From contig JAVBVS010000016.1 in the NCBI GenBank assembly GCA_036677805.1, positions 290,553-322,552 of the forward strand: a stretch of 32,000 nucleotides of DNA, in the 5' to 3' direction. Positions 17,564 to 22,625 of the stretch are shown piece by piece. Below the pieces are notes generated by a model. It did not search any database. It saw only the letters and a list, made by a program, of their open reading frames with translations, and was not told the DNA's origin. The DNA is from Victivallaceae bacterium. Lineage in GTDB: Bacteria > Verrucomicrobiota > Lentisphaeria > Victivallales > Victivallaceae. How positions within the stretch are numbered: position 1 is the first letter of the stretch; every line of letters starts with the position of its first letter. The position numbers and the translations under genes are program-made.

Positions 17564-17606
17564 TTGAAATAACTTTTTCACGATATATATTTCGTCATAT
17601 GGCGAA
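17564..17606 (+). promoter_or_regulatory. Promoter of the arsR-hgcAB-ars operon (TTGAAA-N16-TATATT) plus imperfect 16-bp palindrome
   Basis: TTGAAA at 17564-17569 and TATATT at 17586-17591. TTCGTCATATGGCGAA at 17591-17606 is palindromic at 14 of 16 positions. It lies between the -10 element and the AGGAG RBS (17611-17615). Confidence 0.45.
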
Positions 17607-17617
17607 TTGTAGGAGAT

Positions 17618-18001
17618 GTGATATTGAAAAAAGTATTGAATATTGCTCGCGCGCTGGCGGATGAAAACCGGATTCGCGCCCTGGCCATGCTGCAAAATGG
17701 CGAGATGTGCGTCTGCCGGATCATTGAAATGCTGGAATTGGCGCCGTCGACCGTTTCCAAGCACATGTCCATTCTGAAGCAGGCCGATCTGGTCGCCACC
17801 CGCCGTTCCGGGAAGTGGACCTATTACCGGCTGGCGGACGGCAAGGCGGGCGCTGCCGAGACCGAAATCATTTCATGGCTTTTGCGGCAACTCCAGGACA
17901 ACCCGAGAATCCTCGGGGATTCCCTCCGGTTGGCGGAAATCCGGCTGCGGGTCGAGGCCGAAAAAAAGAAGCTTTGTCTTTGCCGCAAGGAACAATCATG
18001 A
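17618..18001 (+). CDS. arsR: ArsR/SmtB-family metalloregulator (paralog 2), first gene of the hgcAB-ars operon
   Basis: Contains ALADENRIRALAMLQNGEMCVCRIIEMLELAPSTVSKHMSILKQADLV...WTYYRL. A long C-terminal tail ends in KKLCLCRKEQS. The start is ambiguous: GTG 17618 or TTG 17624, the latter better spaced from AGGAG. Confidence 0.85.
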   Translation: MILKKVLNIARALADENRIRALAMLQNGEMCVCRIIEMLELAPSTVSKHMSILKQADLVATRRSGKWTYYRLADGKAGAAETEIISWLLRQLQDNPRILGDSLRLAEIRLRVEAEKKKLCLCRKEQS

Positions 18002-18825
18002 GCAACTCAGCCGGATTGAAGGCCCTGATCGCCGGCGGCGCGCTGGTGATGCCGGACGCCTGCGATCCATTGTCGGCGATGTTGATCGAACAGGCGGGAT
18101 TCGCCGCGGTTCAGTGTTCGGGATTCAGCATGGCGCTGGCCAATGGCGGTCTGCGGGAACGTGATTTCGGCCGCGACCGCAATCTGGCAATTACCCGGGC
18201 GATCGTGCAGAGTGTGACGTTTCCGGTCATGGCGGACGGAGAGGATGGGTTCGGCGACATCGTCGGAACCATTGCCGATTATGTTCGGGCCGGAGTATCC
18301 GGAATCAATATCGAAGACCGGATTCTTCAGGGCCCTTCGGTTCAGGTGATCGACCGCTCAAGTGCGGTCGCCAAGCTCAAAACAGCCAGAGCAAGCGCCG
18401 CCGCCGCGGGCAACCCGGAATTGGTGATCAATGCCCGAACCGATGCGCTGACGGCGTTCGATTCCCGTCCGGCGGGATTCGAGGAAAGCATTATCCCGGG
18501 CAATCTGTTTCTGGAAGCGGGCGCGGACATGGTTTTCGTCACCAAGGTCGCTTCGCTCGAAGAAGTTGAAACTCTGGTGAAAGAGATCGTCGGACCGGTC
18601 AGCATCGCCGCCGGAATGGCATACAATATCGGCGGTTTTTCCATTCGGGAGCTGCTGGACCGCGGCGTGGCGCGAGTCAGTCTGCCGACGATCGCGATTC
18701 AGACGATGATCGCCGCGCTGAAAAAAAATCTGAAAATCATTCATGACACCGGAAGTTTTTCCGAACTGATGCAAGGGGAATCGCTATGCCGTTTCGACGA
18801 CATCGCTTCCCTGATGAAACAATAA
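17998..18825 (+). CDS. Isocitrate lyase / PEP mutase superfamily protein, divergent active-site loop
   Basis: Track ORF 17815..18825, trimmed to MSNSAGLKALIAGGALVMPDACDPLSAMLIEQAGFAAVQCSGFSMA...PVMADGEDGFG...GINIED...INARTDA...EAGADMVF, the ICL/PEPM barrel pattern. The ATG at 17998 overlaps the arsR stop (ATGA). Confidence 0.8.
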   Translation: MSNSAGLKALIAGGALVMPDACDPLSAMLIEQAGFAAVQCSGFSMALANGGLRERDFGRDRNLAITRAIVQSVTFPVMADGEDGFGDIVGTIADYVRAGVSGINIEDRILQGPSVQVIDRSSAVAKLKTARASAAAAGNPELVINARTDALTAFDSRPAGFEESIIPGNLFLEAGADMVFVTKVASLEEVETLVKEIVGPVSIAAGMAYNIGGFSIRELLDRGVARVSLPTIAIQTMIAALKKNLKIIHDTGSFSELMQGESLCRFDDIASLMKQ

Positions 18826-18849
18826 AACTATTTGAAAGTTCCGCTGAAA

Positions 18850-20200: not shown

Positions 20201-20236
20201 ATCTGTCCCCGACTTAATCAAAGGTTATTATCGAAA

Positions 20237-21139
20237 ATGAGCTCCGAAGACTCTCCGGCCCTCGACCGGGCGGCGCAATTCCTGATGACGGTGCATGACG
20301 CCGCGCCGGGAATTACGGAAAACGTGCTGAATCGCGGTAAAACGACCACCGGCTGCTCCAGCTACCAAATGCTGGCGGACGCCGCCGGATTGCGCGAAAA
20401 TATGAGCGTGGCCGACCTCGCCTGCGGCAGCGGCGCGCTGACGCAGCTGATCTCACAGCGCGTCGGACCCTCCGGACGGGTCGTCGGAATCGATCTGAAC
20501 CATGCGGAACTGACTCTGGCCGCAGCCCGCTGCCGGGATTGCGCCAATGTCGGATTCCATGAGGAATCCGCCGCCGGGCTGTCTTTGCCGGACGCGTCCA
20601 TGGATGCGGTGCTCTGCCATATGGCCATCATGCTTTTCCGTCCGATCGAACCGCCGCTGGCGGAAATTGCGCGGATTCTGCGCCCGTCCGGCACGTTCGC
20701 GGCGGTCATTCCGGGCGTATCCGACGGCAACGCGCTGTTCGACGCGGTCCGGAAAACGCTGGCGGCGATCGTGCTTCAGGAGGTTCCGCCGGAAAAGCGG
20801 ATTGCCGTGGGCGTGCCGGAATTCGGCAGCGTTCGGGGCATCCGGGAGCTATTTTCCCGGACCGAAAATTTCGATGACGATTTGCAATTTACGAATTTCA
20901 CGGTAATTTTTCAGGAAACGCCGGTAGCGCTGGCCGAGTTGCTGGTGCCGTTTTTTTATTCTTCCTACCTGCTTTCCGAAACGGGGCGGGAGAAACTCCG
21001 GGACGCGTGGGCCGGGCTTTTCCGGCAGGCCCCGGGGGACCGGGCGGGAAGCGCGACGTTTCATCTGCCGCTGACGGCGTTCACCGTCCGCCGATGCGGG
21101 GCGAAAACGGGTATGAAATCCGGGAAAGCATCATGCTGA
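20237..21139 (+). CDS. Class I SAM-dependent methyltransferase (Methyltransf_11-like), not recognisably ArsM
   Basis: SAM motif I is VADLACGSGALTQLI, followed by the acidic loop VVGIDLN and post-I/II motifs (MDAVLCHMAIMLF, LRPSGTF). Its stop overlaps the arsC start by 7 nt. Confidence 0.8.
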   Translation: MSSEDSPALDRAAQFLMTVHDAAPGITENVLNRGKTTTGCSSYQMLADAAGLRENMSVADLACGSGALTQLISQRVGPSGRVVGIDLNHAELTLAAARCRDCANVGFHEESAAGLSLPDASMDAVLCHMAIMLFRPIEPPLAEIARILRPSGTFAAVIPGVSDGNALFDAVRKTLAAIVLQEVPPEKRIAVGVPEFGSVRGIRELFSRTENFDDDLQFTNFTVIFQETPVALAELLVPFFYSSYLLSETGREKLRDAWAGLFRQAPGDRAGSATFHLPLTAFTVRRCGAKTGMKSGKASC

Positions 21140-21555
21140 AAATTTTATTTCTCTGTACCGGCAACAGCTGCCGGAGCCAGATGGCGGAAGGCTGGGCGCG
21201 CGCCCTGAAAAGCGCAGTGCTTGAGCCGTATTCCGCCGGCATCGAAACCCATGGCTTGAATCCGTACGCGGTGAAAGTCATGGCCGAAGCCGGAGTGGAT
21301 ATTGCGGCGCAGCGTTCCAAACCGGTGGAGGAACTGGCGGGAATCGAGTTCGATTATGTGGTGACGGTCTGCGGCCATGCCCGGGAAAGCTGCCCGATTT
21401 TTCTCGGGCCGGCCAAGGTCGTGCATGTCGGCTTCGACGATCCGCCGCAACTGGCGAAAGCGTGTCCGACCGAAGCGGAAAAGCTCGACTGCTATCGCCG
21501 GGTAAGGGATGAAATCAAGGCTTTCGTGGAACAACTTCCGGAGATTTTACCATGA
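21133..21555 (+). CDS. arsC: Arsenate reductase, LMW-PTPase type (thioredoxin-coupled ArsC)
   Basis: Track ORF 21007..21555, trimmed to MLKILFLCTGNSCRSQMAEGWA (CX5R P-loop). The resolving Cys pair is TVCGHARESCP. Confidence 0.9.
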   Translation: MLKILFLCTGNSCRSQMAEGWARALKSAVLEPYSAGIETHGLNPYAVKVMAEAGVDIAAQRSKPVEELAGIEFDYVVTVCGHARESCPIFLGPAKVVHVGFDDPPQLAKACPTEAEKLDCYRRVRDEIKAFVEQLPEILP

Positions 21556-22625
21556 AAAAACATGAATCCGTCGGCATTGGATTTTTTGAACGTTACCTGA
21601 CCGTCTGGGTGATCCTGTGTATGATCGCCGGTGTGCTGATCGGCCGATTCCTGCCGGGCGTTCCGGCTTTTCTGGGAAAATTTGAATACGAACAGGTCTC
21701 CGTGCCGATCGCGGTGCTGATCTGGCTGATGATCTATCCGATGATGATGAAAGTGGATTTTGAAAGCATCCGCAACGTCGGCAAAAACCCGGAGGGGTTG
21801 TTTGTAACCTGGGTGGTGAACTGGCTGATCAAACCGTTCACCATGTATGGAATCGCGGCGTTCTTCTTTTATGTGCTCTTCTCAAACTGGATCGCCCCCG
21901 ACCTGGCCCGCGACTATCTGGCCGGAGCGGTTCTGTTGGGCGCCGCGCCCTGTACGGCAATGGTTTTCGTCTGGAGCCTGCTGACCCGGGGCAATCCGGC
22001 GTATACCGTAGTCCAGGTGGCGACCAACGACCTGATCATTCTCGTGGCGTTCATTCCGATCGTCAAATTCCTGCTTGGCTTGAGCGATGTCTCGGTGCCG
22101 TGGAGCACGTTGATTCTGTCGGTGCTGCTGTTTGTGGTGATTCCGCTCGCCGGCGGCGTTCTGACCCGGCACGCGGTGATCGCCCGCAAGGGTCTGGCCT
22201 ATTTTGAAGGCAGCTTCATCCCGAAATTCAACCGCGTCACCATTGCGGGATTGCTGCTGACACTGGTCATCATCTTCTCGTTTCAGGGCAAGGTGATCCT
22301 CGGCAATCCGCTGCACATCGTTCTGATCGCCGTCCCTTTGATTCTTCAAACCTTCCTGATTTTCTTCATCGCCTATCTGGCCTGCCGGTGGCTGAAACTG
22401 CCCTACGATGTGGCCGCTCCGGCGGGCATGATCGGCGCCTCGAATTTCTTCGAACTTTCGGTCGCGGTGGCGATCGCGGTATTCGGCACCGCCTCGCCGG
22501 TAGCGCTGGCGACCATCGTCGGCGTGCTGGTGGAGGTGCCGGTGATGCTGATCCTGGTCAAAATCGCCAATCGGACCGCGGCATACTTTCCCCCGGCGCA
22601 CCGCAAGCATGATCATGCCCGATGA
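21552..22625 (+). CDS. acr3: Arsenite efflux permease Acr3 (BART family)
   Basis: 357 aa. N-terminus GFFERYLTVWVILCMIAGVLIG. Also has IWLMIYPMMMKVDF and the conserved LGAAPCTAMVFVWS Cys motif. ATGA overlap with arsC. Confidence 0.92.
   Translation: MKKHESVGIGFFERYLTVWVILCMIAGVLIGRFLPGVPAFLGKFEYEQVSVPIAVLIWLMIYPMMMKVDFESIRNVGKNPEGLFVTWVVNWLIKPFTMYGIAAFFFYVLFSNWIAPDLARDYLAGAVLLGAAPCTAMVFVWSLLTRGNPAYTVVQVATNDLIILVAFIPIVKFLLGLSDVSVPWSTLILSVLLFVVIPLAGGVLTRHAVIARKGLAYFEGSFIPKFNRVTIAGLLLTLVIIFSFQGKVILGNPLHIVLIAVPLILQTFLIFFIAYLACRWLKLPYDVAAPAGMIGASNFFELSVAVAIAVFGTASPVALATIVGVLVEVPVMLILVKIANRTAAYFPPAHRKHDHAR

Follow-up and report, generated by a model that had tools for sequence, protein, structure and literature searches.

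Arsenic-resistance (ars) genes have previously been described next to the mercury-methylation genes hgcA and hgcB. Neighbourhoods in which hgcAB is flanked by acr3, arsC, arsM and arsR were reported in 2020 (McDaniel 2020 mSystems Fig. 6, PMC7438021), and the link was later restated (Gionfriddo 2022; PMC10349881) and tested (Gionfriddo 2022/23). Transcription data collected in situ are available for hgcAB-ars loci, in which arsR-like genes occur mostly with Kiritimatiellae-associated hgcA (Peterson 2025 ES&T, PMC11984097). In Pseudodesulfovibrio mercurii ND132 an ArsR-family gene, arsR2, lies directly upstream of hgcA and hgcB, and the genes are co-transcribed and respond to As(III) and As(V). 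We analysed a 32,000-nucleotide (nt) stretch of contig JAVBVS010000016.1 from a Victivallaceae bacterium (assembly GCA_036677805.1, positions 290,553 to 322,552), referred to here as the window. Between 17.6 and 22.6 kb on the + strand it carries seven packed genes, identified from an open reading frame (ORF) list and from Pfam and NCBIfam profiles: arsR, a gene for an isocitrate lyase/phosphoenolpyruvate mutase (ICL/PEPM)-superfamily enzyme (PEPM-like), hgcA, hgcB, a methyltransferase gene, arsC and acr3. In our reading, to which we give a probability of about 0.75, the region is an arsenic-resistance operon of composite make-up and under ArsR repression, with hgcAB as one of several accessory modules; its host is an uncultured Lentisphaerota (Victivallaceae-like) bacterium.

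The locus shares with the published neighbourhoods that arsR, arsC, acr3 and a methyltransferase gene flank hgcAB or lie within a few ORFs of it on the same strand. It adds a gene of the PEPM/ICL superfamily, a methyltransferase other than ArsM, a Victivallaceae-like Lentisphaerota host, and a promoter and putative operator delimited by a comparative footprint. The ND132 locus has no other ars genes and its ArsR2 carries Cys47/49 and Cys86/88, whereas the window has a CVC motif and a C-terminal CXC in ArsR and adds arsC, acr3 and two further enzymes. Like canonical arsR-arsC-acr3 operons, the window combines a repressor, a thioredoxin-type arsenate reductase and Acr3 in one tight unit with an operator (putative in the window) overlapping the promoter, but four extra genes (PEPM-like, hgcA, hgcB and methyltransferase) stand between arsR and arsC. 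A preliminary description of this DNA, made from its letters and ORFs, had proposed that the hgcAB-arsenic link goes further here than previously known. This was not borne out, as hgcAB-ars neighbourhoods have been in print since 2020, and the window is a clean new example in a published class and not a discovery. What appear to be undescribed in the literature we searched, which was incomplete, are the PEPM-like enzyme and the non-ArsM methyltransferase as ars accessories, a fusion of ArsR to this methyltransferase, and the conserved putative operator.

Gene identities were taken from Pfam and NCBIfam profile searches and junctions were read directly off the sequence (Table 1). All seven gene calls of the preliminary description were upheld, as was the tight packing it had noted: ATGA overlaps join arsR to the PEPM-like gene (at 17998) and arsC to acr3 (at 21552), the hgcA stop (19920) and the hgcB ATG (19925) are separated by a 4-nt gap, and the methyltransferase gene (stop 21139) overlaps arsC (ATG 21133) by 7 nt. 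The spacing between hgcB and the methyltransferase gene is 36 nt. No credible terminator was found within the cluster, where hits were no commoner than in shuffled sequence and none lay at a gene boundary. Because of the overlaps, the gaps of 4-36 nt, the lack of terminators and the conserved synteny described below, we infer that arsR through acr3 form a single mRNA. ArsC has the P-loop C8-X5-R14 together with Cys80 and Cys87, and scored 145.9 bits against TIGR02691, under the equivalog cutoff of 174. Searches of the locus for Rfam families, riboswitches or other RNA elements and a tRNA-linked island found none, and no composition break hinting at recent transfer was seen (GC 0.57-0.61, flanks alike).

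The preliminary description had placed a single good promoter and a palindrome ahead of arsR. Both were found and are conserved in relatives; however, a second, equally good promoter just upstream heads an arsR operon of its own. The promoter-like site at arsR scored 10/12 in a consensus scan, and the palindrome relevant to arsR is TTCGTCATATGGCGAA. In an alignment of the regions upstream of arsR from eight loci, only the -35, the -10, the palindrome (TTCGTCAT followed by ATG(G/A)CGAA) and the GGAG ribosome-binding site survive, and more distal upstream sequence has wholly diverged. These four blocks form a phylogenetic footprint of a promoter and a putative operator, and the palindrome is the putative site of ArsR binding. 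It is kept in the window and in the loci L001, L003, L006, L009, L012 and L097, which are described below. In L009 (TTCGTTATATGACGAA) and L097 (TTCGTCATGTGACGAA) an A replaces the G at the imperfect position, and each of these operators is still one other pair short of a perfect palindrome. For arsR, TTG 17624 (giving 125 residues) is a likelier start than GTG 17618, as GGAG lies at 17612-17615 and relatives begin at this TTG. In this numbering the CVC motif (Cys29 and Cys31), which is at the classical position, and Cys120 of the C-terminal CXC are invariant across 10 relatives, a set of cysteines that would fit a three-sulfur As(III) site.

Table 1. Positions of the arsenic-resistance operon containing hgcAB, and of adjoining features, in the window
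Feature	Position	Strand	Evidence or detail
Sigma-70-type promoter	17564..17591	+	-35 TTGAAA 17564-17569, 16-nt spacer, -10 TATATT 17586-17591
Putative ArsR operator, imperfect 16-bp palindrome, halves TTCGTCAT and ATGGCGAA	17591..17606	.	Inverted repeat; touches -10, spans likely transcription start
arsR (ArsR/SmtB repressor)	17618..18001	+	PF01022 (HTH_5) 51.8 bits, NF033788 90 bits
ICL/PEPM-superfamily enzyme, 275 aa	17998..18825	+	PF13714 174.8 bits
hgcA, corrinoid protein, 356 aa	18850..19920	+	NF040863 398.1 bits vs cutoff 275
hgcB, 2[4Fe-4S] ferredoxin, 91 aa	19925..20200	+	NF040864 100 bits vs 99, marginal
Class I S-adenosylmethionine (SAM)-dependent small-molecule methyltransferase, 300 aa	20237..21139	+	Pfam Methyltransf_25/11/31
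arsC, thioredoxin-coupled low-molecular-weight (LMW)-phosphatase-type arsenate reductase, 140 aa	21133..21555	+	PF01451 (LMWPc) 69.9 bits
acr3, arsenite efflux permease, 357 aa	21552..22625	+	TIGR00832 375 bits vs 283
Adjacent, separately regulated ars operon	14716..17509	+	ORFs, promoter scan, Pfam labels from L001
Upstream operon promoter TTGATA-16-TATATT	14716-14743	+	Consensus scan
Upstream operon arsR	14762-15049	+	
ArsP-family permease	15101-16075	+	
Thioredoxin_3 membrane protein	16098-16820	+	
DsbD_2 protein	16817-17509	+	
MFS transporter (MFS_1)	22700-23983	+	Pfam
Cation-diffusion-facilitator (CDF; Cation_efflux)	24023-25285	+	Pfam

The closest HgcA homologues came from metagenome-assembled genomes (MAGs) of Victivallaceae (Lentisphaerota), whose neighbourhoods were obtained by exact-protein contig look-ups. 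The nearest (L001, HgcA 96% identical) has the same seven genes in identical order. In another Victivallaceae locus (L003, HgcA 77%) all seven genes are again present; gaps at six gene pairs measure 2-37 nt, arsC and acr3 overlap by 4 nt, and unrelated genes follow acr3. At 68% HgcA identity (L006) the order is arsR-PEPM-arsC-hgcA-hgcB-methyltransferase-acr3, so that arsC is relocated while 4-nt overlaps are kept and the flanks are entirely different. L001, L003 and L006 derive from ERR2642234, GCA_034926605.1 and ERZ27250307, respectively. Layouts in other members of the clade are arsR-arsP-arsC-hgcA-hgcB (L009), arsR-arsC-acr3-hgcA-hgcB (L011) and arsR-arsC-P-type ATPase-arsA-arsD-x-hgcA-hgcB-ArsM/CMD (L012). 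All seven loci of the HgcA clade to which the window belongs lie inside ars operons; no cultured member of this clade is known to us. The preliminary description had named a one-off juxtaposition among the outcomes that would speak against it, and the neighbourhoods showed recurrence instead. Because the same genes recur with the same tight packing in other genomes, the arrangement is beyond chance and is selected. L012 (165-14247) and L099 (44-10067), a locus discussed below, are large ars operons of anaerobes with arsA/arsD, heavy-metal P-type ATPase, DGC, thioredoxin and CMD/AhpD-domain methyltransferase (ArsM/AhpD type) genes, and in L012 the last of these comes directly after hgcB.

We also surveyed hgcA neighbourhoods more widely, as the preliminary description had proposed, using a profile scan of one genome per species. 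Among the matches listed, this gave 80 other loci with HgcA 40-52% identical to that of the window; the scan missed the closest (Victivallaceae) clade, which was covered by the exact-protein look-ups. Neighbours were found by tblastn with the window proteins, and only LMW-phosphatase-type ArsC and Acr3 were sought; the percentages are rough. ArsC or Acr3 homologues lay within 5 kb of hgcA at 18 of these 80 species loci, always on the hgcA strand and at 16 loci within 1.5 kb, whereas only 3 loci had them at 5-10 kb. Where at least 3 kb was available on both sides, 10 of 41 loci were ars-linked. In a rough neighbour-joining HgcA tree, also proposed in that description, ars linkage turns up in five or more separate parts: the window clade (7/7), Bacteroidales (10/13), a Verrucomicrobiota/Pontiellaceae group and a group containing Phycisphaerales, together with one Bacillota locus and one of about 38 from Desulfobacterota. 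Layouts vary by group; Bacteroidales, for example, have arsC-hgcAB-acr3 and Bacillota arsR-hgcAB-acr3. A search of 72,556 plasmids (PLSDB) found no HgcA. At one Verrucomicrobiota MAG locus with the order arsC-acr3-hgcA (L019:1-4478), Acr3 and ArsC are 77% and 72% identical to the window proteins and HgcA only 49%, and the ars genes and hgcA at that locus may have different histories.

HgcA and HgcB of the window pass the sequence tests for mercury methylators. HgcA covers positions 3-321 of the 325 of profile NF040863 and matches PF03599 (CdhD-like corrinoid-binding domain) at 40.9 bits. Its cap helix NVWCAAGK (residues 105-112, window 19162-19185), which includes the Co-ligating Cys, falls in a column that is invariant in 20 aligned HgcA sequences (the window plus 19 others), and hydrophobic segments at about residues 200-353 represent a membrane domain (Kyte-Doolittle; helix count approximate). 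HgcB has two CX2CX2CX3CP motifs (Cys18/21/24/28 and Cys48/51/54/58), followed by Cys71 and a C-terminal CCECGC (Cys82/83/85/87). The hallmarks listed in the preliminary description, namely the cap-helix motif and membrane domain of HgcA and the paired motifs and C-terminal Cys cluster of HgcB, were thus all confirmed. In the alignment the cap helix and all invariant HgcA positions are the same as in ordinary mercury methylators. The hgcA start is ambiguous (TTG 18832, ATG 18850 or ATG 18874) and is most likely ATG 18850, the start called in the 96%-identical relative. Ahead of the conserved core, most aligned relatives, close ones included, have a Cys-rich stretch (CC, CCC) that is missing from the N-terminus of the window HgcA (18832-18900).

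The methyltransferase encoded between hgcB and arsC is not ArsM. It scored 50.7 vs 263 for NF008823, 52.1 vs 510 for NF041537 and 30 vs 500 for NF040538, and ArsM chains from the PDB reached only about 24 bits, through motif I alone. ArsM binds As(III) through three to four conserved cysteines (CmArsM), and this set was not found in the 23 members of the methyltransferase family. Their only invariant cysteines are Cys63, which lies in motif I (DLACGSG), and Cys127. Proteins of the class I methyltransferase fold commonly have a Cys at the first of these positions, and Cys127 aligns with a Cys of the unrelated methyltransferase YcgJ. The structural model (predicted local distance difference test score, pLDDT, 90.7) had small-molecule O-, N- and S-methyltransferases as its top 50 PDB neighbours (LahSB, OxaG, TmtA/GtmA, YcgJ, trans-aconitate methyltransferase), with neither ArsM nor AS3MT among them. 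A role as loader of the HgcA methyl group, like that of a corrinoid protein-associated methyltransferase (CpaM), was also ruled out, as the protein scored 35.7 vs 180 for NF043040 and the family occurs in ars operons that lack hgcAB and with no corrinoid protein close by. That SAM loads HgcAB directly likewise counts against a dedicated methyl loader (PMC11588087).

Only 40 clusters in 1.84 billion representatives match the methyltransferase at E<=1e-30, so the family is a small one, and it was found in ars operons without hgcAB at L097, L098 and L099. At L097:311-1564 and L098:451-1704, on contigs from more than one sample, it is part of a natural 417-aa fusion of ArsR and methyltransferase (P0244). 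The ArsR part of the fusion is 69% and the methyltransferase part 65% identical to the window proteins, and it has CVC and a C-terminal CAC. P0244 leads an operon that continues with arsC-acr3-Trx3-DsbD_2, lacks hgcAB and shares the operator palindrome of the window, and at L097 ArsC is 77% and Acr3 84% identical to those of the window. L097 resembles the window operon minus PEPM-hgcAB, with arsR and methyltransferase as one protein. The comparison suggests that in the window PEPM-hgcAB lies between genes that are elsewhere adjacent and even fused, an arrangement that may reflect an insertion here or a deletion there. A fusion of ArsR to a true ArsM, unlike this methyltransferase family, is reported for ArsRM of Brevundimonas (PMC10190100). 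At L099 the methyltransferase gene sits between an ArsM/CMD gene, directly before it, and acr3; an outgroup at 37% identity has no ars context. The methyltransferase is thus a recurrent accessory of ars operons.

The PEPM-like enzyme reached no NCBIfam equivalog. Its AlphaFold model (pLDDT 93.3) gave template modelling (TM) scores of 0.84-0.88 to 2ze3, PrpB, carboxy-phosphoenolpyruvate mutase and phosphoenolpyruvate mutase (Ppm), and the Mg-binding acidic residues D80, E82, E106 and D107 are invariant in the family, which places it, as a TIM barrel, in the ICL/PEPM superfamily at the level of fold. (Methyl)isocitrate lyases carry the catalytic loop K(K/R)CGH. Identity as an isocitrate or 2-methylisocitrate lyase was ruled out by the scores (93 vs 354 for TIGR02317, 18 vs 276 for TIGR01346) and by a short loop after IED that lacks Cys-Gly-His. 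Ppm was ruled out as well: TIGR02320 scored 43 vs 319.55, and the protein has EDRILQGPSV, within a family consensus of EDQ..., in place of the Ppm-specific motif EDKX5NS (PMC8942020). The best match was DFA0005 (PDB 2ze3; 82 bits, TM 0.84), which has a D-x-E-x-G metal site and a short active-site loop in common with it but is only 27% identical and is itself of unknown function. We know of no arsenic context for DFA0005. In the literature searched, which was incomplete and so gives weak evidence, no paper paired hgcA with isocitrate lyase and nothing relevant combined ars genes with PEPM. Residue 22 (window 18061-18063) is a nearly invariant Tyr in 22 relatives but a Cys in the window protein (PDAYDP vs PDACDP).

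We then examined 80 metagenome loci (L101-L180) encoding relatives of the PEPM-like enzyme at 46-75% identity. ArsC or Acr3 was encoded within 5 kb of the PEPM-like gene at 30 of them, 27 on the same strand, and other family members lie in unrelated contexts. Typical ars layouts are arsR-arsC-PEPM-acr3 (L170) and arsR-arsC-acr3-PEPM (L157), with further examples at L116, L147, L176 and L113, and a longer one reads arsR-arsC-arsC-x-ArsM/CMD-x-x-DsbD_2-PEPM-P-type ATPase-DUF6951-acr3 (L146). An unbiased clustering of ORFs around PEPM was noisy (spurious high-GC ORFs, merged clusters, no gene caller) and was used qualitatively. The DUF6951 protein between P-type ATPase and acr3 (L146:11013-11393) is the product of a small gene common to three loci. 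That the PEPM-like enzyme is a specific partner of HgcAB was mostly rejected, with no HgcA and one HgcB among the 80 loci. The exceptions that pair it with hgc genes are a Pirellulaceae MAG with arsR-hgcA-hgcB-PEPM and neither arsC nor acr3 (GCA_054640595.1, L014:5088-7846) and a short contig with hgcB-PEPM (L115). We conclude that the PEPM-like enzyme, too, is an ars-operon accessory. A reading of the two extra enzymes as parts of an hgcAB pathway found no support, as each occurs in ars operons without hgcAB.

Together, these observations suggest how the operon could work. Judging from the footprint and from the general behaviour of ArsR repressors, an ArsR dimer bound to the palindrome, abutting the -10, would block the single promoter of the operon. 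Binding of As(III) to Cys29/Cys31 and Cys120 would free ArsR, and one mRNA would then span arsR through acr3. ArsC, which has its catalytic residues, would reduce As(V) with thioredoxin, and Acr3 would export As(III), as in their families. HgcA and HgcB would be made only under arsenic stress, and therefore hgcAB expression, and any methylmercury (MeHg) output in this lineage, should be arsenic-inducible. The PEPM-like enzyme and the methyltransferase would act as general ars-operon accessories and not as HgcAB helpers, and hgcAB itself looks like a further accessory module from a mix-and-match pool of anaerobic ars genes. The regulatory side of the model, from ArsR release to arsenic-inducible hgcAB, has good inferential support. 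Co-regulation of hgcAB with genes for As(V) reduction and As(III) efflux, as the preliminary description had proposed, draws support from the promoter and operator footprint, from a cassette kept despite unrelated flanks, and from repeated independent embedding in ars operons across the HgcA tree. It also agrees with ND132, in which hgcAB transcription is ArsR-dependent and arsenic-responsive (Gionfriddo 2022/23), and with lake data in which hgcA transcription is lower where arsR is present (PMC11984097).

What HgcAB contributes is a more tentative matter. Our preferred guess, which we regard as possible and no firmer, is a SAM-loaded corrinoid methyl transfer to thiol-bound As(III), with methylarsenite expelled by the adjacent ArsP; this is plausible as chemistry and in keeping with ArsP and ArsM as neighbours. 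Several observations weigh against our interpretation of the locus. ND132 wild-type cultures gave no methylarsenicals, and deletion of hgcAB in that strain raised sensitivity to As(V) only and left As(III) tolerance unchanged. About 78% of the sampled HgcA loci among the matches listed, including almost all of those from Desulfobacterota, have no ars neighbours, and therefore arsenic cannot be a universal role of HgcAB. Within the window, a weak promoter-like site at 21597-21625 (9/12, consensus scan) could give acr3 extra transcription, and for the host organism co-transcription and arsenic induction are themselves predictions from sequence.

The alternative that survives best, and which we hold to be a tentative possibility, is that hgcAB has no arsenic role and is carried and expressed with ars operons as frequent landing sites in metal(loid)-resistance islands, or that co-regulation merely keeps a costly membrane corrinoid enzyme off. 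The ND132 results on methylarsenicals and As(III) tolerance, and the lower hgcA transcription at lake loci with arsR, would be expected if this were so, and anaerobic ars operons do carry mixed passengers (Trx3, DsbD_2, P-type ATPase, DUF6951, PEPM-like enzymes and methyltransferases). However, hgcAB is internal, between arsR and arsC/acr3, often with 1-8 nt gaps or 4-nt overlaps, and it has been kept through changes in gene order over a range of 61-96% HgcA identity. It has also been recruited in several phyla in differing layouts, loss of hgcAB makes ND132 more sensitive to As(V), and the plasmid search lends no support to an origin in mobile islands.

We consider it rather doubtful, in second place, that HgcAB of this clade is a corrinoid arsenic methylase, that is, an ArsM-independent As(III) methyltransferase whose product is further methylated or modified by the downstream methyltransferase and exported by ArsP or Acr3. 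The ArsP operon lies immediately upstream in the window, and ArsP and hgcAB share an operon in L009, L036 and L094. The slot after hgcB holds either the window-type methyltransferase or an ArsM/CMD-type gene (L012), and at L099 the methyltransferase follows directly on ArsM/CMD. The HgcAB methyl group comes from SAM (PMC11588087), and the clade is ars-embedded throughout. Set against this, ND132 made no methylarsenicals, the ordinary cap helix and invariant positions of HgcA give no sign of an altered substrate site, and L097 has the methyltransferase but neither HgcAB nor ArsM in view.

A broad response to thiophilic metals, in which ArsR senses several soft metals or metalloids (As, Sb, Hg, Cd) or S-adenosylhomocysteine and HgcAB handles Hg(II) while ArsC and Acr3 deal with arsenic, seems unlikely. 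CDF and MFS transporter genes do lie after acr3 in the window, a heavy-metal P-type ATPase is part of the operons at L012 and L146, and ND132 ArsR2 also responds to S-adenosylhomocysteine and has a four-Cys site suggested to fit Zn, Cd or Pb. But MeHg formation gives methylators no protection from Hg(II) (PMC10083202), the window ArsR has the classical CVC motif for As(III) and not the Cys pattern of ArsR2, and conservation of the cassette does not extend to the MFS and CDF genes. Least probable is an unrelated HgcAB chemistry for which the arsenic context is irrelevant, such as reductive dehalogenation of halomethanes. In its favour, a 2026 preprint reports CCl4 dechlorination by heterologously expressed HgcAB (10.64898/2026.04.26.720869); against it, the preprint is not peer reviewed, and this chemistry leaves unexplained why hgcAB lies in ars operons in about one fifth of the sampled species among the matches listed and in every member of the window clade.

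We therefore retain the reading of an arsenic-resistance operon with hgcAB as an accessory module. The native role of HgcAB is a long-standing question for which arsenic is the leading genomic clue, and this locus, although not the origin of that clue, sharpens it: a whole HgcA clade is always ars-embedded, and two enzymes easily taken for HgcAB partners are independent ars-operon accessories. MeHg formation by the abundant organisms of this lineage, of the Planctomycetes-Verrucomicrobia-Chlamydiae type, is predicted to depend on arsenic exposure. The operon is compact, with seven genes, a defined promoter and a putative operator, and could be synthesised for heterologous tests, and the PEPM/ICL-like family and the rare, sometimes ArsR-fused methyltransferase family are leads for arsenic biochemistry. 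The strongest version, in which HgcAB of this clade is a true arsenic-resistance enzyme (methylating As(III) by means of corrinoid and SAM, independently of ArsM, with export of the product by ArsP) and the PEPM-like enzyme and methyltransferase are two further undescribed arsenic-biotransformation enzymes, we consider quite unlikely; if it were true, a native function of HgcAB and a new anaerobic route of arsenic methylation would be established.

Together with the genes on either side (Table 1), the operon makes up an arsenic or metal island that comprises eleven genes or more. The Pfam labels of the upstream ars operon were taken from the 96-98% identical genes of L001. This operon has a different palindrome, AACATTATGTT, between its -35 and -10, and its ArsR has CVC and CPC pairs that recall Cys47/49 and Cys86/88 of ND132 ArsR2. 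Downstream, the gap between acr3 and the MFS gene is 74 nt. The MFS and CDF genes were found only in the 96%-identical L001 and L002 and not after acr3 in L003 or L006, and they are probably outside the conserved cassette. Further away and unrelated to the hgcAB locus, a 1308-aa ORF on the - strand (window 8631-12557) corresponds to an RHS/YD-repeat protein annotated in the near-identical contig L001, and it is followed by GDPD and 2-thiouracil-desulfurase/DUF1722 genes.

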